This document shows positions 1-57,794 of a stretch of 57,794 nt of DNA, piece by piece; positions within the stretch are counted from its first letter, which is position 1, and the number at the start of each line of letters is the position of its first letter. This DNA is from a virus. Lineage: Duplodnaviria; Caudoviricetes. Below the pieces are notes generated by a model, which was not told where the DNA came from, made no database searches, and worked only from the letters and a program-made list of their open reading frames with translations. The translations under genes and the position numbers were made by a program. Location of the stretch: positions 1-57,794 of the IMG/VR virus record IMGVR_UViG_3300036846_000250, one strand, 5' to 3'.

Positions 1-127
1 ACGGCTTGGACGCGGCAGGGACTTCGGTCTGCGCAAGGCGAATTGCCATTGCAGGGACTTTGTCGACGCCGAAACCGTGTTCGCACACGGCGATGTAATA
101 AGGTTTCTCGGTGTAATAAGTGACGAG
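1..127. repeat. Terminal direct repeat (identical to 57668-57794); most likely circular-assembly k-mer overlap
   Basis: First 127 nt equal last 127 nt; 127 is a common maximum assembler k; an ORF reads through the join. Confidence 0.9.
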
Positions 128-220
128 CGGTTTTGCTTCACGCGCCTCTCTGCGAACACGCTGCAATTCGCGCTCGATCATTACACGCTCGACTGCATCT
201 GCTAATGGATAACGTTTCAT
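1..220 (-). CDS. N-terminal part of hypothetical protein spanning the circular junction (continues to 57525)
   Basis: ATG at 220 preceded by GGAGG; MKRYPLADAVERV...YYIAVCEHGFG is in frame with ORF 57525..57755. Confidence 0.7.
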   Translation of the reverse strand, partial: MKRYPLADAVERVMIERELQRVRREAREAKPLVTYYTEKPYYIAVCEHGFGVDKVPAMAIRLAQTEVPAASKP

Positions 221-401
221 TTTTTCCTCCGGTTGGTTGTGTATATGTTTGCGATGACCTGCGAGACGAGCCGCCTAATGTTTTCGCGGCGTGTTTATCC
301 GCCGCAGCGTATCTCAAACGAGCATACCACTCGCTCGCAGAGTCAAAGGCTCATAAGAGCGTCCAAGCGACTCGGGATCAAACCGAATCGCCTGACCGCC
401 A

Positions 402-878
402 TCATGCGAAATATCCGGCGCAAATCGGTCCGATGGAACGGGCGACCGAATCGGCTGCTTTAAGGTGACGACCGCAAACGATGCAACGCGCATATTGCGT
501 CAGGAACGCCTGCGCCTCTTTCAGCGGCCACTTGTCGGCTTCGGTCAGATTGTAGATCGCGCCAGCGCGATACACAGTCTCGAAATCGACTTTTTCGCCG
601 TGCTCGGTCATGCGAGGCGGCGACGCGATTACTTCTTTCGCGTAGCAACGGGTTTTGTCCTTGTTAGGCTTGACCACGTAGATGCGTCCATCTTTGCGAT
701 ATACGCCGACGCCGACGGCTTTGCCGCCGTTGGCTGCGAACGTGTTCGCGGTTGTGGTTTGCTCCGGACACTCAACGTGTTCGACGCCTCCGCCGCGTTC
801 CCACTCGACTTGATCGCCGACGTTTATATTGCCACCGCATTTGCGGCAGCGTGCTGGATATTTTGAAGTGATTTTCAT
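402..878 (-). CDS. Zn-ribbon protein with C-terminal DUF6011-like motif
   Basis: CRKC...H..C at N-terminus and CIVCGRHL..ADSVARSIGPICA at C-terminus; GAAAGGA RBS before ATG 878. Confidence 0.65.
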   Translation of the reverse strand: MKITSKYPARCRKCGGNINVGDQVEWERGGGVEHVECPEQTTTANTFAANGGKAVGVGVYRKDGRIYVVKPNKDKTRCYAKEVIASPPRMTEHGEKVDFETVYRAGAIYNLTEADKWPLKEAQAFLTQYARCIVCGRHLKAADSVARSIGPICAGYFA

Positions 879-967
879 TCTGTAGGTTTCCTTTCGGTGT
901 GTATGTTTTTGAAGCGTGATTGCTTCCTGCAACGCCGACCGGATGGAACAGTCGGCGTTGCGTGGAA

Positions 968-1864
968 TCACTCTGCTGCTTCGTCGTGGTTGACGTCGAG
1001 GACGTAGTCAGCGGCTCGGTGCGCTGCTGCGGCTGCGTGGACGACCATCTTGTGATCGTTCTTCAACGCTTTTAACCAGCCTTTGATGTAGGCGGCGCTG
1101 TGGTCGGCGGTGTTCTCGATGCCGGAAATCGCACACAGGAATGCTGCGGTCATTTCGGCAATGAGTTCTTCCTTCGCATACGGCTCGGAACCGAACTGCT
1201 TGGCATCTTCGGCGCATCCGGCGAAGCGGCCTTCGCGTGACGCGTGCCCTGTCGAGTGCGCCAGTTCGTGGAACAGCGTGGTGTAGAATCCGCTCGGACT
1301 GTCGAACGATTCTTTGACCGGCATTTTGACTCGGTCGAACATCGGCGAGTAACATGCTGCGCTGCCGTTGTAGATGATCTCAGGACGCTTCGGCATTCCG
1401 GCGACGATCTTCTCCGCTTCGGCGACCGGATTAAATTTCTTCGCCGATTTTTTCGGTTTCTCGACCTTCGGCAATTTGGCTTCGAGGCCGTCGCACTGCT
1501 CGACGTTGAACACACGATAGTAGCGAAGCAGGAACACGCGTTTCGTTTCGCCTGTTTTCTTGTCTTCGATCTCGTCGCGTTTCCAGAATACTGCCAGCGT
1601 GGACTGCTCGCCTGCGCGAACTTGTCCGCCGAGCTTGGCACACTGGTTGTAGGTCAGCCAATATGGCGACGCGTAACCTGCTGCGGCGAGCATCCAAACG
1701 TTGATGCCGCGATACGGCCGCTTGCTGACCAGATTTACTGGCATCTGAGGGCGACCGCTGTTATCGACTGTCCACGGCTTGCGCCACGGAATTGTGCCGC
1801 CTTGCAACAGGGCGATGATTTTGTCGGTGACGATCTGATATACGTCTGTGAACTGTTTTTTCAT
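968..1864 (-). CDS. ardC: ArdC-like antirestriction/ssDNA-binding protein with zincin-like metallopeptidase domain
   Basis: IPWRKPW, PYRGINVW, WLTYNQ, YRVFNVEQ, HELAHSTGH, YAKEELIAE, YIKGWLKAL motifs; start taken at MKKQFTD. Confidence 0.9.
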   Translation of the reverse strand: MKKQFTDVYQIVTDKIIALLQGGTIPWRKPWTVDNSGRPQMPVNLVSKRPYRGINVWMLAAAGYASPYWLTYNQCAKLGGQVRAGEQSTLAVFWKRDEIEDKKTGETKRVFLLRYYRVFNVEQCDGLEAKLPKVEKPKKSAKKFNPVAEAEKIVAGMPKRPEIIYNGSAACYSPMFDRVKMPVKESFDSPSGFYTTLFHELAHSTGHASREGRFAGCAEDAKQFGSEPYAKEELIAEMTAAFLCAISGIENTADHSAAYIKGWLKALKNDHKMVVHAAAAAHRAADYVLDVNHDEAAE

Positions 1865-1936
1865 TTTGTGTGTGTATGTTTGCGACGCAATTTGCAGCGT
1901 CGTTTGCACGGCCATTCGGCGGTGCGTGGTTTGTTT

Positions 1937-2012
1937 TGGTCTGTCTCATCAGCGTGCGATGACCAGTGCGCACGAACGACGGAAAAACTTAATTTCCCTC
2001 CGTCGTTTCGAC
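1937..2012 (-). ncRNA. Type II hammerhead ribozyme (HHR-1)
   Basis: Minus strand: GUC-GAA-A-CGACGGAGGGA/UUUUUCCGUCG-U-U^-CGUGCG/CGCACG-CUGAUGA-GAC; loop I UGGUC pairs with 3' tail GACCA; predicted cleavage between 1975 and 1974. Confidence 0.9.
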
Positions 2013-2372
2013 TTCATTTCGACGATCCACATGTTGGCTGGCGCGTTTCTTTTTCTGGTGGCCACACGCAAGGGCAGAGCCGTGATAACCCACGGCGGCA
2101 CAGCTGTTACAGTGATCGAGTCAGCGATGGTGATCTTTTTCGGTTGGCCACCGCTGCAAGTGCATTCTCAAACGTTCGGTTATTTCTTCAATCAGGCGCG
2201 TGGAATAAATCTCACTCTGCTGACTGCGAATCTTTAGGCGGGTCGGACGCCAATGGTATCAAAGAACTGACACGAGAATCACGCCGGATAAGACAAAAAC
2301 AACAGGAAAAACAAAAAAAACAGAAAAAGATTTGGCGGTGCCTGTTTTCCCCTGCGTGCGCCCCTCCGATGG

Positions 2373-2400
2373 AAGCTTATCTGCGTTTGGTGATAAGCTT
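2373..2400 (+). repeat. 28-bp palindromic element, copy 1
   Basis: AAGCTTATCTGCGTTTGGTGATAAGCTT in the divergent promoter region. Confidence 0.95.
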
Positions 2401-2427
2401 TCCCGCTTTACGGCCGGAAAATATTTC

Positions 2428-2457
2428 TTGCGCTTTAATTGCCACCGTGCTTACCGT
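2428..2457 (+). promoter_or_regulatory. Putative sigma70-type promoter for a leaderless transcript
   Basis: TTGCGC-N18-TACCGT, 6 nt before ATG 2464; no SD. Confidence 0.45.
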
Positions 2458-2463
2458 GGGCGC

Positions 2464-2766
2464 ATGGCTACTAAAAAACAAACCGAACTGCATATCGAGG
2501 GCAAAGGCGTTTCGCCTGCGAACATTCCAGAGATCGACAAGCTTGCTGACGATTACATCAAAGAACGCGACAAACGCATGAAACAAACTCCGCGCGAAGT
2601 CGCCGCCAAAGGCAAATTGATCGACGCGCTGCATGAGCACGCCGACCAACTGAAAAATCCTGACGGCGACATTCTGTATCGCATGGACAGTTTGCTGATC
2701 ACGTTGACCGCTGGAAAAGAAAAACTGCAAGTGCGCGACGTGAGCGAACAAGACGAGGCGCAATGA
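2464..2766 (+). CDS. Hypothetical protein
   Basis: MATKKQTELH...; ATGA overlap with next gene. Confidence 0.7.
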   Translation: MATKKQTELHIEGKGVSPANIPEIDKLADDYIKERDKRMKQTPREVAAKGKLIDALHEHADQLKNPDGDILYRMDSLLITLTAGKEKLQVRDVSEQDEAQ

Positions 2767-3263
2767 TCGCGCACAGCCAGCGTAGCGTGAGAGAGGCACG
2801 CGGACTCGTTACGCTGACCGATGACGAAGCGCGACGCGCTGTCGAAGCTGGTCGCAAACGACATGCTGCCTCGCGCGTGCAACGCCTGCACAATGCACGC
2901 GAGGATTTGCCTACAGGCGAATGGATGCTGCACGATATCATGGGCGCACTGGGAGAATTCGCTGCATGCAAAGCGCTCGGTCGGACATGGGAGGCTCGCA
3001 TCAATAACTTCCACAACGCCGATTTCGGAGAACGCGCCCAAGTGCGCACATCCACATATCGCAATGCCTGTCTCATCGTTAGGCCAAAAGACAATGATGA
3101 TCATTACTTCATCCTCGTTGTCGGTGATGCGCCTCCGAATAAAACGTTCACAGTCATCGGCTACATCAAAGGTGCAGACGCCAAACGCCAACGGTGGCGT
3201 CGCAATCCGCGAGGCATTGCTCCTGCGTATTTCGTTCCTCAATCGGATCTGTTGCCTCTGTGA
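2763..3263 (+). CDS. Hypothetical phage protein, possible restriction-endonuclease-like fold
   Basis: GALGEFAACKALG...ADFG...QVRTS pattern; translationally coupled. Confidence 0.55.
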   Translation: MIAHSQRSVREARGLVTLTDDEARRAVEAGRKRHAASRVQRLHNAREDLPTGEWMLHDIMGALGEFAACKALGRTWEARINNFHNADFGERAQVRTSTYRNACLIVRPKDNDDHYFILVVGDAPPNKTFTVIGYIKGADAKRQRWRRNPRGIAPAYFVPQSDLLPL

Positions 3264-3475
3264 TTGCTTCGCACATCAAGAGAAATTTTTTCGCGTGGGG
3301 CCTGAATAGGTTCTGTTGCAAAAAAAAGTCGACTGAGGACGCGGAGAGGCACCAAATATTTTTAGATACTGCACAGGGCATTTTGCATGTCACCGCACTT
3401 GGCCACCTAGCGTGGGAAGTGGTGTGAAAGTGACGTGATTCCCCTCCGGAAACCGGATGAAAGGCGGACAAAAAA

Positions 3476-4042
3476 ATGGCGGCACAAACTATTGAAACGG
3501 CGATGCTGGCGAAACTGCTGGACATAACGCCGAGGCACGTTATCCGGCTGACGAACGACGGCGTGCTTAGTCGGGCGATCGACGACGACGGAAACGAATT
3601 GCGCGGTCGTTATTCGCTGCTGGCGGTGCGCGACTACTGTCGATACCTCCGGTCACAGATGCGCGTCGGCGATACTGGGCAGGCGCAATGGGAAGCTTCA
3701 CGAAACAAACGAATGGCTGCCGAGGCTGAGATGAGCGACCTGCGCGTGAAGCAATACAAAGGCCAGCTGCACAACGCACACGACGTGGAGTTCGCAATCA
3801 CGAACATGATGACATATTTCAAGCAGCGTGCGCTGGCATTTCCCTCGAGAGTGGCGCGGCTGTGCGTAGGCAAAAATTTCCGGCAGATTTTGGAGATACT
3901 TTCAGACGAGATCGAACTGCTTTTGCGAGAACTTTCGGGTTATGACGCTTCGCAATTCACCGAGCAGGATGAGAAATATTTGGAGAACGAGAACGCGGAA
4001 CTGAATGGAAGCGACGGCGACAACGGCGAGTCTTCGGCGTGA
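3476..4042 (+). CDS. terS: Terminase small subunit (Nu1-like)
   Basis: N-terminal HTH (LAKLLDITPRHVIRL), RY.L..VRDYCRYLR, coiled coil; directly upstream of TerL. Confidence 0.85.
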   Translation: MAAQTIETAMLAKLLDITPRHVIRLTNDGVLSRAIDDDGNELRGRYSLLAVRDYCRYLRSQMRVGDTGQAQWEASRNKRMAAEAEMSDLRVKQYKGQLHNAHDVEFAITNMMTYFKQRALAFPSRVARLCVGKNFRQILEILSDEIELLLRELSGYDASQFTEQDEKYLENENAELNGSDGDNGESSA

Positions 4043-5948
4043 CGAGTATCTAGCGACCAAAAAGTTCTGCTGGTCGTTCGTTTCCGTCGTTAGGCCACCG
4101 TCGAAAATCACGCTTTCCGAGTGGGCGGACAAGTATCGCGTGCTCTCGTCTGAGAGTTCGGCCGAACCTGGTGCGTGGGTCACAGCGAAAGCGCCCTACG
4201 AAAAAGAGATCATGGACGCGATCAGTGATCCGTTCGTGCAGCGCGTGGCGATACAAAAAGCTGCGCAGCTCGGAATCACTGACGCGGCGATCTTGAATCC
4301 GGTCGGCTACTTCATGGACGCCGATCCGTGTCCGATCTTGGTCGTGCAGCCGACAATCGAAATGGCTGAGACGTTCTCGACCGACAGGCTTGCGCCGATG
4401 CTGCGCGACAGCAAGCGGCTGCGGCACAAAGTATCGGACGCGCGTTCACGCGACAGTTCAAACACGCTGCGCCGGAAAGCGTTCAAGGGCGGATTCGTGG
4501 CGCTCGGCGGCGCGAACAGCGCGGCGTCACTCTCTGGCCGACCGGTGCGAGCGGTGCTACTGGACGACGTCGACCGATATCCGGCGAGTGCCGGAACGGA
4601 GGGCAATCCGCTGCAACTGGCAATCGCTCGCACGACCGCATTTTGGAATCGCAAAATTGTGATCGTGTCGTCACCCGGCATCCGAGGCATATCGCACATC
4701 GAGCGTGAAATGGAGGACTCGACGCAGGAACACTGGTATCTGCCCTGTCCGGAGTGCGAGTGCATGCAAATTCTCGACTGGGACAGGATTCGATTTGCCG
4801 ATATGACGCATCGTTGCCTCGAGTGCGAAAAGTATTTCGAGAAATTTCTCTGGCTGGCTGGCGAGGGCGAGTGGCGAGCGCACAAGCCGTTCAACGAGCG
4901 CGGCGAAAAGATTTTGAAACGCGGCTTCTACCTGAGCGGCCTCTACAATCCTTGGATCGAATGGGAAATTCTTGTCGACGAGTTCATCAAGGCGGTCCGC
5001 GCCAACGAGGAGGGCGACATCGAGCCGTTGAAAGCGTTTCGCAATACGCGGCTCGGACTGCTGCACGACGAGAGCGGGACAAAAGTCGAGATCGATCTTT
5101 ACGCCGAGCGGCGCGAGGACTACGACGCGGAAATTCCCGACGGTGTTCTGGCGTTGACTGCTGGCGTGGACGTGGGCGAATACGCGTTGAACTACGAGGT
5201 CGTCGGCTGGGGCATAGGGCGTGAATCGTGGGGCATCGAATACGGTTTGATCGACGGCGATCCGCGCGAGGCCGACGTGTGGGACATACTTGACGAAGTG
5301 CTTTATCGCCAGACGTGGACGACGAGCGACGACAAAAAAATGCGCTGCCGGAAAATCGCTGTCGACAGTGGTTACGCTGCGGACTTCGTCTACACCTACA
5401 CCAAGATGCGTCAGCCGCGTTGCATTGCGATTAAAGGCATGGGCGGACTGGGCCGACCGTTCATCATCGGTGCTGGCTCATACACCAAAGGCAATCGCGC
5501 TCGGTTGCAGCCGATAGGCGTCGACAACGGCAAAGAGGAAATTGTCAATCGCCTGCTGGTGTCCAAGGTGGGGGCTGGTTACTGTCACTTTCCACGACTG
5601 AAAAATGGCGAAGCGACGCGCGGCTACGACGAGGAATATTTCAAAGGGCTGACGGCGGAGCGCCGGATCGTGAAAGCGAAACTCGGTTTCCGGACATACA
5701 TCTGGACGAAACGATTGTCGCAGCGGAACGAGCCATTCGACTGCCGGAACTACGCGCTAGCTGCGCTGGCGATGCCGTCGAGCGGCATTCATCTTGACAC
5801 GATGAGACGCGACATTTTCAGCGTGGCGGAAACAAAGAACGAGTCGACGGTGTTCGGCGCACAGGCGCGATCAATGACAGCGCCGCCTCCGCCGTCGCAG
5901 GGCGAGTCGCGCGGCGGTTTTGGTGCGCAGAATCGGCCACTGACGTGA
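4005..5948 (+). CDS. terL: Terminase large subunit, lambda GpA family
   Basis: LSEWADKYR, KAAQLG (Walker A variant), LLDDVDRYP, CPEC, AGVDV, AVDSG, RNEPFDCRNYA. Confidence 0.95.
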   Translation: MEATATTASLRRDEYLATKKFCWSFVSVVRPPSKITLSEWADKYRVLSSESSAEPGAWVTAKAPYEKEIMDAISDPFVQRVAIQKAAQLGITDAAILNPVGYFMDADPCPILVVQPTIEMAETFSTDRLAPMLRDSKRLRHKVSDARSRDSSNTLRRKAFKGGFVALGGANSAASLSGRPVRAVLLDDVDRYPASAGTEGNPLQLAIARTTAFWNRKIVIVSSPGIRGISHIEREMEDSTQEHWYLPCPECECMQILDWDRIRFADMTHRCLECEKYFEKFLWLAGEGEWRAHKPFNERGEKILKRGFYLSGLYNPWIEWEILVDEFIKAVRANEEGDIEPLKAFRNTRLGLLHDESGTKVEIDLYAERREDYDAEIPDGVLALTAGVDVGEYALNYEVVGWGIGRESWGIEYGLIDGDPREADVWDILDEVLYRQTWTTSDDKKMRCRKIAVDSGYAADFVYTYTKMRQPRCIAIKGMGGLGRPFIIGAGSYTKGNRARLQPIGVDNGKEEIVNRLLVSKVGAGYCHFPRLKNGEATRGYDEEYFKGLTAERRIVKAKLGFRTYIWTKRLSQRNEPFDCRNYALAALAMPSSGIHLDTMRRDIFSVAETKNESTVFGAQARSMTAPPPPSQGESRGGFGAQNRPLT

Positions 5949-55499: not shown

Positions 55500-55727
55500 T
55501 TATTCTTTTTGCTCGGTGACGGTGACGACGTAGGCGCGTCCGAGCGACAGATCGCGCGCCACATTTTCGGTGATTACATCGCCGACGTGATACTCGTCAC
55601 GGCGCGACATGGTCGACACAGCGACTGCGCCGACCAGCTTCGCAATGCGAAACGTCCGAGTCTTTTTGTCGGACGCGCCGTCGGTGCGACTCTGCTGTGC
55701 GAGGATGATTTGGACGGTGTTTTTCAT
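55500..55727 (-). CDS. Hypothetical protein
   Basis: GGAG RBS. Confidence 0.6.
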   Translation of the reverse strand: MKNTVQIILAQQSRTDGASDKKTRTFRIAKLVGAVAVSTMSRRDEYHVGDVITENVARDLSLGRAYVVTVTEQKE

Positions 55728-55826
55728 GTATGTATTTTTCTCCGGTTGCTTGCCTGCTTCATTGCAAACAAGAACGATGCGGCGAACGGTTTTGCTAGGC
55801 GCGTTCGCCGCACGAGTTCTTCCCTG

Positions 55827-56543
55827 CTATTTCGCCTGCGGCTTGTCGCCGCCGATCCAGCCTTTGACCAGATCCATCACACGCCGACGCTGCGGCGGTG
55901 CGAAGCGGTTAATCCATTGCGTCCACTTTTTGTAGACTTGATCCTCCCACGGCACTTCGGTCTTGCGTGGCTTTTTCTTGGTGGGAGTTTTCGATGCGGC
56001 TTTGCCGAGCTTCGACTTGCCGCTGATCACATCCTCCAGTCCGCCGGACTTGCGAACTTTCTCGGCCTGCTCGCCTTTGCGCTGGCTGACGCCAGCGGTC
56101 TTGGCGACTTGAGCAGCGACGCTGCCCTTGCCGTCCAGTTTCGCTTTGCCTTTGAACGTGCCAGCTTTCGACTGGCGCTCTTTCGCATCTTTTTCCAGAG
56201 CGGGGCCACGCATCTTGGATACGATTGCGACGCGCTGGTCGTCGCTCATGTGCCGTCGGAACAGATTGCGCGACATGATTTCATTCGCAATTTGTTCTTC
56301 GGTGCCGTCGAAAATTTCGAACTTGTCGTCCGGAACTTCGACGTCTGCCTCGTATGCTAATTTCCAGCGCGTTGCGCCGTCGAGGATTGTGCTACGATCT
56401 TTGGTGACAAGGATCGGAACTTTGATGCCATTCTGCTTGATATCCTCTCGCATTTCATCGAGTTCGCTCTTAGGCATCGGAGCGATCTGGCCGAACATTC
56501 GGCACAGCGGATGTATCTGCATCACTTTTTGGGATTTAGCCAT
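55827..56543 (-). CDS. ParB-like protein with HTH
   Basis: HP, DIKQNG..VPI, ILDGATR..LA, SRNL.RRHMS, HTH VAAQVAKTAGVSQR; AGGAGG RBS. Confidence 0.8.
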   Translation of the reverse strand: MAKSQKVMQIHPLCRMFGQIAPMPKSELDEMREDIKQNGIKVPILVTKDRSTILDGATRWKLAYEADVEVPDDKFEIFDGTEEQIANEIMSRNLFRRHMSDDQRVAIVSKMRGPALEKDAKERQSKAGTFKGKAKLDGKGSVAAQVAKTAGVSQRKGEQAEKVRKSGGLEDVISGKSKLGKAASKTPTKKKPRKTEVPWEDQVYKKWTQWINRFAPPQRRRVMDLVKGWIGGDKPQAK

Positions 56544-56581
56544 TTTGTGATTTACCTCCTATGGTTTGTCGTTTGTATGTG

Positions 56582-56679
56582 GGTTCTCTGCTCATCAGTG
56601 CAGGCGCGAACCGTTTGACGCCTACAGATTGCGCGAAGCTTATCTGCATTTGGTGATAAGCTTCAAGCGCAATTTCGCA
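56582..56679 (-). ncRNA. Type II hammerhead ribozyme (HHR-2) whose stem III contains the 28-bp palindrome
   Basis: Minus strand: UGC-GAA-A-UUGCGC..[repeat]..GCGCAA-U-C^-UGUAGGCG/CGCCUGCA-CUGAUGA-GCA; loop I GGUUC pairs with tail GAACC; predicted cleavage between 56627 and 56626. Confidence 0.9.
56636..56663 (+). repeat. 28-bp palindromic element, copy 16 (within HHR-2)
   Basis: AAGCTTATCTGCATTTGGTGATAAGCTT. Confidence 0.95.
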
Positions 56680-56693
56680 AATCAAATTTTTGG

Positions 56694-56987
56694 CTACTGC
56701 TGCATGGCGGCGATGGTTTCCGGCGACGGCTTTTTTATTCGCCGCCACACGGATTGTGCGACGGTCTCATTCCGTTTCTCGGCGAAGTGGAACATCGTTT
56801 GCAGACGCGCCTTGCTGGCCATGATCTTCGTCTGCGCTTTGTCGAGTTCCAAGCGTTCGCGTTGAATGAACTCGATCGAGTTGCGGTCTTGTTTGGTGCG
56901 GAACGTGGACTCGACCGACATTAGTTTGATCATCGCCGCTTCGAGCGAACGCTCGGCTTTGATGATTGCTTCGAGTGCTGATTTCAT
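56694..56987 (-). CDS. Coiled-coil hypothetical protein
   Basis: AAGGAGG RBS, MKSALEAII... Confidence 0.65.
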   Translation of the reverse strand: MKSALEAIIKAERSLEAAMIKLMSVESTFRTKQDRNSIEFIQRERLELDKAQTKIMASKARLQTMFHFAEKRNETVAQSVWRRIKKPSPETIAAMQQ

Positions 56988-57210
56988 TACTGCTTCCTCC
57001 TTGGTGGTTGTGTGTGTGTTTTTCTGACGACGCATGGATGCGAACGAGCCGCACCGATGACGGTATATTTTTTGCCTGTCTCGCGCTCACGAATCATCAA
57101 AGCGATTCGTTGCTTGAAGTCGGCAACCGACTCTGGCTGTGTGTATGTGTTTTTCATGGATTACTCCGCACGCCCGACAGCCACAGGCGCTGTCGGGCGG
57201 TTCGGAACGA

Positions 57211-57528
57211 TCACAGACTGATTGTCGGGCAGTCGACGACCAGACCGCCGCAGTATTCACATTGCGACGTGACCAATCGTTCGCCTGCTCGACCGGATGG
57301 ACGCGCGGCAATATCGCGGAAGCGATGCCGACGCGTTTGCCACTTGAATTTCGGCTCTGGCGCGTTCGGACAGATCGCCGTGCTATTCCATCCGCCGACG
57401 GCAATGATGGTTTTTTGCTGCTTTTGCAATTTGCGAAGCGTGGCTGCAAGATGGTGTCTGCCGACTCGATCCATCGCTGTCGCTGCTTCGGCCAACGTGT
57501 ATAACGGATGTTTCGTTTTCTTTTTCAT
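57211..57528 (-). CDS. Hypothetical protein with Zn-ribbon C-terminus
   Basis: MKKKTKHP...CEYCGG; GGAGG RBS; ATGA coupling. Confidence 0.55.
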   Translation of the reverse strand: MKKKTKHPLYTLAEAATAMDRVGRHHLAATLRKLQKQQKTIIAVGGWNSTAICPNAPEPKFKWQTRRHRFRDIAARPSGRAGERLVTSQCEYCGGLVVDCPTISL

Positions 57529-57794
57529 CGATAGGTTTGCCTGTAGCCTCCGTGTGTGGTGGTTAGGCCGACCAGCTTCGGCTGTTCGCCATTCGGCCAT
57601 ACTGGTGCGCCGCGCTTGAAGTCTGTCGGCTCGACAAACGACATGCTGGAATACACCAGCAATTGCGACGGCTTGGACGCGGCAGGGACTTCGGTCTGCG
57701 CAAGGCGAATTGCCATTGCAGGGACTTTGTCGACGCCGAAACCGTGTTCGCACACGGCGATGTAATAAGGTTTCTCGGTGTAATAAGTGACGAG
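57525..57794 (-). CDS. C-terminal part of the junction-spanning hypothetical protein (start at 220)
   Basis: Continuous frame across the 127-bp overlap. Confidence 0.7.
   Translation of the reverse strand, partial: LVTYYTEKPYYIAVCEHGFGVDKVPAMAIRLAQTEVPAASKPSQLLVYSSMSFVEPTDFKRGAPVWPNGEQPKLVGLTTTHGGYRQTYR
57668..57794. repeat. Terminal direct repeat (identical to 1-127)
   Basis: Direct sequence identity. Confidence 0.9.

Follow-up and report, generated by a model that had tools for sequence, protein, structure and literature searches.

Type II hammerhead ribozymes (Rfam family RF02276), in which loop I forms a pseudoknot with the 3' tail, are known from phage contexts, and the excerpted text of the 2011 report PMC3088659 describes prophages in which multiple hammerheads flank single genes or short gene blocks of varying identity. 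According to the same excerpts, triple clustered hammerheads flank the anti-restriction gene ardA in an Agrobacterium tumefaciens prophage and cleave in vitro and in E. coli, and three Legionella strains carry a hammerhead directly upstream of ardA. The excerpts also report that in the haloviruses HF1 and HF2 the HHphage hammerhead lies 13 nucleotides (nt) before the first open reading frame (ORF), a helicase gene, of an early polycistronic transcript, whose mapped 5' end falls at most 3 nt from the cut. Three type II hammerheads located near phage-like genes of Desulfovibrio vulgaris cleave in vivo, as stated in the excerpted text of PMC8782182, and the two sources together give this class a precedent for self-cleavage during transcription and in cells (PMC3088659, PMC8782182). 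A 2019 review concludes that the purpose of bacterial and phage hammerheads needs more work (PMC6765202). Here we analysed the 57,794 nt of the IMG/VR virus record IMGVR_UViG_3300036846_000250 (the window, taken at its full length), in which a type II hammerhead, HHR-1, is encoded on the minus strand just before ardC, the gene of an anti-restriction protein. HHR-1 is probably an active, constitutive ribozyme placed in the 5' leader of a leftward replication and anti-defence operon, as judged from sequence comparison. From its motif, conservation, covariation and position, all computed here, we infer cleavage in vivo, a promoter upstream of HHR-1 and an effect of the cut on the message.

Read on the minus strand from 2013 to 1934, HHR-1 has the order AGUC-GAA-[stem III, beginning with A and ending with U]-U^-[stem I hairpin]-CUGAUGA-GAC-A-GACCA, the caret marking the predicted cut. 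Stem II comprises 3 base pairs (bp) of GAC with GUC, formed by G2012-U2011-C2010 and G1945-A1944-C1943, and has an open end. The core consists of GAA at 2009-2007, CUGAUGA at 1952-1946 and the A15.1-U16.1 pair (A2006-U1976), and every invariant hammerhead core position is present, including an H17 that is not G and the G10.1-C11.1 pair. Stem III pairs 2006-1995 with 1987-1976 and is closed by a 7-nt loop. Three of its pairs are G.U. An earlier sequence-only reading of this DNA had also noted G.U pairs in this stem; its length is 12 bp counting A15.1-U16.1 instead of the 11 bp given there. H17 is U1975 in a GUU triplet, so that the cut is predicted between U1975 and C1974. Stem I has 6 bp (1974-1969 with 1958-1953) and a 10-nt loop, CACUGGUCAU, holding the motif UGGUC, which pairs as U1965-C1961 with G1941-A1937 of the GACCA motif located one nt after stem II. 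Stems I and III are thus loop-closed and stem II is open, which is the type II permutation, and the pseudoknot has at least 4 bp. The complete core, the three helices and the pseudoknot on the minus strand bear out the type II hammerhead claimed for this site, and apart from the length of stem III the anatomy, coordinates and 1975/1974 cut of that reading agree with ours. The minimum-free-energy fold of 1925-2025 taken alone gave z = -0.75, a value that is uninformative because the element is a small junction with a pseudoknot.

Compared with the RF02276 type II hammerheads, as far as the excerpts of PMC3088659 describe them, HHR-1 has the same core, permutation, short open stem II, pseudoknot and phage context, and differs by its long stem III (12 bp with three G.U), by GUU in place of GUC and by a score 0.2 bits under the gathering score. 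It resembles the ardA cases of that source in that a hammerhead precedes an anti-restriction gene in a phage-type operon and a second one, a few kb downstream, brackets a short gene block. Unlike in those cases, the gene is ardC, of an unrelated family, and HHR-1 is known from sequence alone and stands in a leader with no gene upstream. Like the HF1/HF2 HHphage in the same excerpts, HHR-1 precedes the first ORF of a presumed-early polycistronic unit; HHphage is an archaeal virus variant hammerhead 13 nt from its ORF, whereas HHR-1 is a canonical type II hammerhead lying 69 nt before ardC. The finding extends the ardA precedent to ardC and is otherwise in keeping with known biology: HHR-1 is a real ribozyme of a well-described kind, and its peculiarities, namely its place in a leader, the length of stem III and GUU as the triplet, are minor.

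HHR-1 aligned end to end with the Rfam Hammerhead_II model RF02276 at 36.8 bits, with an E-value of 1.2e-5 in a 1-kb search and of 7.2e-4 when the whole window was searched against all 4227 Rfam families. The only other match in the window with E below 0.1 was a second hammerhead, HHR-2 (28.8 bits, E 0.088), and the third best match was an irrelevant microRNA model. The same family model gave no match above its cut-off in 14 control genomes.

Relatives of HHR-1 were collected with the 16-mer CUGAUGAGACAGACCA, which is present in 51 viral contigs; in 35 of these, a strict descriptor recognised that the 16-mer is part of a complete type II hammerhead. The 3-kb loci of the 16-mer contigs contained many extra hammerheads with other tails, for a total of 58 distinct ribozymes. 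The covariance model R1, built from these 58, collected 86 matches (65 distinct) and, when run with the filters off, detected exactly two sites in the window, HHR-1 and HHR-2. On the 86 matches, 95.0% of the cells of the proposed structure were paired and 16 of its 19 pairs changed on both sides. The covariation score was 0.610, a level that none of 500 shuffled sets reached, against 0.143 +/- 0.010 after shuffling, and it did not exceed 0.091 when the 3' partners were slid by 1-3 columns. The alignment (A2) was fitted to the nested structure and its seeds were required to have paired stems, which inflates the paired percentage for stems I-III; this bias does not act in the same way on the pseudoknot result or on the slid controls. 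The pseudoknot, which belongs to neither the descriptor nor the model, was paired in 84.4% of the cells, with 4 of its 5 pairs changing on both sides and with UGGUC/GACCA, UGACC/GGUCA and UGGCU/AGCCA among its variants. The type II layout is common to all 65 distinct relatives. A second model, R2, was built from 39 hammerheads of other viral contigs, the window and its close relative (below) being left out. R2 scored HHR-1 at 58.7 bits, a part of which arises by construction since the seeds were retrieved via the 16-mer from HHR-1; the ortholog in the close relative reached 64.0 bits and HHR-2 14.6 bits.

Searches with ArdC, with the ParB-like protein encoded after HHR-2 and with a pattern of the leader DNA identified a single close relative in the viral collection, a 9.2-kb fragment (G001/L110); those with the ParB-like protein and the leader DNA detected no close relative beyond it. 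From the helicase gene via the junction of the terminal repeats to the terminase gene, G001 and the window are collinear at ~77-81% DNA identity, and G001 is contiguous across that junction. It carries a hammerhead at the HHR-1 position that scores 42.7 bits with RF02276, above the cut-off. Core, stem I, UGGUC and GACCA are identical in the two, while stem III reads CGGGCG...CGCCCG in G001 and CGACGG...CCGUCG in the window, both strands having changed with pairing kept. This compensatory change stands in a background of ~77% identity, where about one base in four differs. A metagenome contig (L192), which shows the same 81% ArdC identity, begins inside the ribozyme.

The position of hammerheads was counted in 27 non-redundant 3-kb loci of other phages, which contain 58 hammerheads. 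In 50 of the 58, an upstream co-directional ORF stops between 40 nt before and 6 nt after the ribozyme start (median gap -1, that is, an overlap), and the next start codon follows within 80 nt downstream in 55 (median 15 nt, maximum 46). A locus holds between 1 and 7 hammerheads: 14 loci have two to seven and 13 have a single one. Loci with several hammerheads reproduce the arrangement described in 2011 for prophages in the excerpts of PMC3088659. The flanking genes are mostly small and without an assigned family. A partner gene common to the related hammerheads was considered and rejected: among the 115 flanking ORFs, out of 177 called, that were taken into the PHROG search, 15 matched any PHROG and none an anti-restriction family. 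Dense same-strand type II arrays were also observed in unrelated viral contigs, with 7 hammerheads in 3 kb (L066), 6 (L096), 5 (L099) and 4 (L109), at about one per small gene and with a pseudoknot sequence that varies from copy to copy. HHR-1 shares with the intercistronic arrays (L059-L109) the consensus AGUCGAAAC, stem III, GUC, stem I with a UGGUC loop and then CUGAUGAGACAGACCA; unlike them, it has no upstream ORF and is followed by a 69-nt structured spacer.

No minus-strand ORF of at least 40 amino acids (aa) ends at HHR-1. The ~450 nt between HHR-1 and the first rightward gene align to G001 with gaps of 1, 2, 9 and 13 nt, and the region upstream of HHR-1 can be considered non-coding since these gaps are not all multiples of three. 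Downstream, the ATG of ardC at 1864-1862 is 72 nt past the last pseudoknot base, 1937, in line with the ~75 nt estimated from the sequence-only reading, and the 69-nt spacer exceeds that of all 55 family cases. Because of the missing upstream ORF, the non-coding upstream region and the long spacer, HHR-1 would belong to the leader of the leftward operon and would not be an intercistronic ribozyme. Both sides of HHR-1 offer weak hints of structure. In the spacer, two hairpins are predicted (~1925-1906 and 1902-1883), followed by a CA-rich stretch, ACACACACAAAAUG, before ardC; the first hairpin is kept in G001, with 2 of its 7 pairs changed on both sides (n=2 sequences). Upstream, the 145 nt adjoining HHR-1 (2014-2157) are better conserved in G001 than the sequence beyond and can be folded into a consensus of 29 pairs that includes a long-range CGAUC/GGAUCG helix; 2 of the pairs are compensatory (n=2 sequences). 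This block may encode a structured leader RNA that the ribozyme sets free, or it may be promoter/operator DNA. An alternative fold of the 3' product pairing UCAUC with GAUGA was dropped, as it is not conserved in G001. No obvious Shine-Dalgarno sequence precedes ardC, in contrast to the ParB-like gene with its AGGAGG, and G001 shares the CA-rich start region.

The link to ardC was examined in other genomes. The phage G050 encodes an ArdC of 33% identity and has a type II hammerhead (45.1 bits with RF02276) just before ardC, 11 nt past the stop of the upstream ORF and 21 nt before the ardC ATG; in the phage G003 a hammerhead directly follows ardC. In total, a hammerhead was detected near ardC in 3 of 53 viral loci (RF02276, run on 50 of these 53 records, also gave 3), in 1 of 80 bacterial loci, downstream of ardC, and in 1 of 80 metagenome loci, this last being the close relative whose contig ends within the hammerhead. 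A general association of ardC with hammerheads was rejected on these counts. No paper describing a hammerhead before ardC was found, subscription journals being outside the search.

Several points weigh against an active leader ribozyme serving the ardC operon. HHR-1 misses the Rfam gathering threshold (37 bits) by 0.2 bits. This threshold is a database criterion and not a property of the RNA, and the shortfall is due to the long stem III insertion and to GUU; as a result of it a default gathering-threshold scan gives 0 matches, and the hammerheads appear when an E-value threshold is used. GUU is the minority form, found in 5 of the 65 distinct relatives against 54 with GUC, and it is the slower hammerhead substrate of the two in biochemistry. 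Conservation of HHR-1 rests on one close relative plus the truncated record L192. No minus-strand sigma-70-like promoter match was found in consensus scans of 1-3600 and 55500-57794, the leader position being deduced from the absence of an upstream ORF and from the divergent gene layout, and a promoter might lie within the 69-nt spacer. An ardC-specific role of HHR-1 is unsupported because a hammerhead near ardC is rare across the loci. Lastly, the effect that a 5'-OH hairpin end may have on RNA stability varies among bacteria.

With these points taken into account, HHR-1 would act as follows. The leftward transcript would start upstream of 2013 and the three-way junction would fold during transcription, the pseudoknot of loop I with the 3' tail locking stems I and II. 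The RNA would then cut itself after U1975. The upstream product would be a structured leader of ~150-450 nt whose 3' end is the 12-bp stem III hairpin, bearing a 2',3'-cyclic phosphate. The downstream product, the ardC message, would start at C1974, its 5'-OH directly adjoining the stem I hairpin and pseudoknot, and then run through the two small hairpins to the ardC start. Both new ends would be structured because the type II permutation puts stem III at the end of the 5' product and stem I at the start of the 3' product. The benefit would probably be a fixed 5' end, independent of the promoter, without triphosphate and capped by a hairpin, which would set the stability or translation of the first anti-restriction message. 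HHR-2 would make a cut of its own in this transcript, separating the ardC block from the parB-like and replication genes. That the hairpin-capped 5'-OH end is itself what selection has favoured, shielding the anti-restriction message from 5'-end-dependent decay and releasing the structured leader, is a more tentative proposal that we hold to be possible though doubtful.

RiboJ, which was engineered from a satellite-RNA hammerhead, removes a variable leader when placed in the 5' untranslated region, leaves a 5'-OH and a hairpin and so standardises expression. HHR-1 resembles such synthetic ribozyme insulators in leader removal, and we infer that it could act in this way in the phage. HHR-1 is a clean and small test case, as it combines a single leader ribozyme with a gene of measurable anti-restriction phenotype. 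Two comparisons are at hand, the natural ortholog in G001 and a nearby slot that has no hammerhead in that relative. Its value would be to tell whether leader removal or a 5'-OH end aids expression of the phage's first counter-defence gene.

The second ribozyme, HHR-2, has a 5-bp stem II, a long stem III and a GGUUC/GAACC pseudoknot; its H17 is C56627 and its cut is predicted at 56627/56626. It reads as a well-formed but divergent hammerhead and occupies the canonical slot: an ORF stop precedes it by 13 nt, and the ParB-like gene starts 36 nt further on. HHR-1 is of type II like HHR-2, and the stems of the two are unrelated in sequence, as had been pointed out. In G001, no second hammerhead was detected in the 5.2 kb downstream of HHR-1 (best other match 10.2 bits), and the HHR-2 position holds only a repeated hairpin without CUGAUGA or CGAAA. 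HHR-2 was seemingly either built around this resident hairpin or lost from around it, the hammerhead and the repeat occupying the same intergenic slot.

Among the other explanations of the locus, the one that survives best makes the upstream fragment the functional product: a leader RNA with structure, or a non-coding RNA, of at least ~150 nt, covering 2014-2157 and beyond, would receive its 3' end from HHR-1 and be released from the ardC message by the cut. The better conservation of these 145 nt in G001, their consensus fold with 2 pairs changed on both sides and the stable hairpin that ends a type II 5' product are all in its favour. The covariation is anecdotal at n=2 sequences, however, the conserved blocks could equally be promoter/operator DNA, no Rfam family besides the hammerhead matched within 1500-2500, and the leader pattern search found no homologs beyond G001. 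We consider this explanation unlikely. HHR-1 could also be what is left, neutrally, of a hammerhead cassette that was mobile or duplicated; such a remnant may still fold but has no selected role. The sporadic association with ardC, the gain or loss of the HHR-2 slot between close relatives and the weaker GUU triplet would fit such a remnant, but all core positions are intact and both strands of stem III have changed with pairing kept at ~77% identity, which makes it improbable.

The sequence-only reading had further proposed that the two ribozymes excise an RNA carrying ardC and about five small genes, whose ends could stabilise it or allow RtcB-type circularisation. In the form considered here, an RtcB of the host would seal it into a circular, exonuclease-proof messenger RNA. 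Its premises hold: both ribozymes lie on the minus strand of one leftward unit (~2.2 kb over the junction to 56.5 kb) with co-directional genes, G001 being contiguous there, and the terminator and promoter matches between them are not above the shuffled expectation. The arithmetic of a ~3-kb piece is also right, 3,015 nt (1974..1 plus 57667..56627) if both cut one transcript, and this segment holds ardC and about four further ORFs. From hammerhead chemistry it follows that the excised piece would carry a 5'-OH and a 2',3'-cyclic phosphate. Such ends are a substrate of RtcB, an enzyme common in prokaryotes (10 of the 14 control genomes), and a host RtcB acting on the excised RNA is possible. 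A domain search found no RtcB or RNA ligase domain encoded by the phage, and G001 has HHR-1 and lacks HHR-2. A hybrid of the HHR-2 5' half with the HHR-1 3' half would have a stem II of 1 bp (G-C, then A.G and C.U), positions 10.1-10.3 of HHR-1 being GAC and 11.1-11.3 of HHR-2 being C, G and U; no hybrid ribozyme would therefore bring the ends together. The number of hammerheads in related loci, which varies from 1 to 7 and is one in 13 of the 27, does not favour a pair either. Viroids, satellite RNAs and retrozymes also use two hammerhead cuts, which leave the released RNA with a 5'-OH and a 2',3'-cyclic phosphate, and their hammerheads yield circular products (excerpted text of PMC7229834 and PMC7761336). 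As these excerpts describe it, the same ribozyme is present twice there and the ends re-form one hammerhead; the window has two unrelated ribozymes, and because of the 1-bp hybrid stem II its ends are not aligned in that way. For the clustered hammerheads examined by Perreault et al., the excerpts of PMC3088659 state that no circular or spliced products were detected. The paired HHR-1/HHR-2 arrangement is not a conserved device, and excision with circularisation is highly improbable. As for chance resemblance without any ribozyme, an Rfam score slightly under the curated threshold would allow it, yet the E-value of the whole window against all families, the R2 score, the ortholog exceeding the Rfam cut-off and a pseudoknot present though scored by no model make it negligible.

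Table 1. Features of the window discussed in the text, with the basis of each assignment
Feature	Position	Strand	Evidence or remark
HHR-1, type II hammerhead ribozyme	1934..2013	minus	sequence, RF02276, R2, G001 ortholog, family covariation
Spacer from HHR-1 to the ardC start, 69 nt	1865..1933	minus	predicted fold
Non-coding stretch upstream of HHR-1, in the gap separating ardC from the divergent plus-strand genes	2014..2470	minus	G001 alignment, ORF absence
ardC, anti-restriction protein, 298 aa, single-stranded DNA-binding N domain and zincin-like metallopeptidase	968..1864	minus	ATG 1864-1862
Gene after ardC, C-terminal DUF6011 domain	402..971	minus	Pfam DUF6011, E 6.9e-11
HHR-2, divergent type II hammerhead	56580..56680	minus	RF02276 28.8 bits (56582-56680), R1 25.0 bits, R2 14.6 bits
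28-nt inverted-repeat copy	56636..56663	plus	outer (distal) part of HHR-2 stem III; L110 counterpart 2850-2877
ParB-like gene, first after HHR-2	55827..56543	minus	AGGAGG before ATG; PHROG 17439 and 4715, weak Pfam ParB_N
Direct terminal repeat	1..127		identical to 57668-57794, exact 127-nt match
Terminase small subunit	3476-4042		rightward arm
Terminase large subunit	4005-5948		rightward arm

The IMG/VR record is of the class 'direct terminal repeats' (Table 1). Because its first and last 127 nt are identical, the sequence indicates that the genome is a 57,667-bp circle or a permuted linear molecule, the repeat marking the linearisation point. AT skew and gene content divide it into two arms, a rightward one from ~2.4 to 40 kb and a leftward one from ~2.0 kb down to 1, over the junction and then from 57.7 to 40 kb. 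The leftward arm, which also encodes a helicase, an Erf-type annealing protein and a PD-(D/E)XK exonuclease as detected by Pfam and PHROG searches, is presumed from its gene content to be expressed early. ArdC was identified by the Pfam domains ArdcN (E 1.1e-32) and MPTase-PolyVal (E 1.6e-35) and by PHROG 7245 'anti-restriction protein' (E 9.9e-73). The start of the DUF6011 gene overlaps the ardC stop. Further along, ~284 nt of the window (118-402, including a 59-aa ORF at 138-317) are replaced by 15 nt in G001 (L110 3422-3437), an indel just inside the terminal repeat. The closest cellular relatives of ArdC (40-52% identity; L111-L190) belong mainly to genomes and metagenome-assembled genomes of Acidobacteriota (Terriglobia), with some from Planctomycetota, Armatimonadota and 'Deltaproteobacteria'; this taxonomy hints weakly at a range of hosts from soil or peat.

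The hairpin embedded in HHR-2 belongs to a 28-nt inverted repeat, AAGCTTATC-N10-GATAAGCTT with the loop TGC(A/G)TTTGGT, of which the window has 14 copies against 0 expected. They start at 2373, 5948, 7466, 13065, 17671, 20617, 22959, 27772, 31832, 42376, 44608, 46592, 52492 and 56636, each being 28 nt long. The repeat pattern matched no viral contig besides the window and G001, which has 5 copies, all in one orientation. In the window too, all copies have one DNA orientation in both transcription arms despite the asymmetric loop, and most of those in the rightward arm begin a few bases at most from an ORF stop codon. The repeat may serve as an RNA hairpin between cistrons or as a phage-protein site on the DNA.

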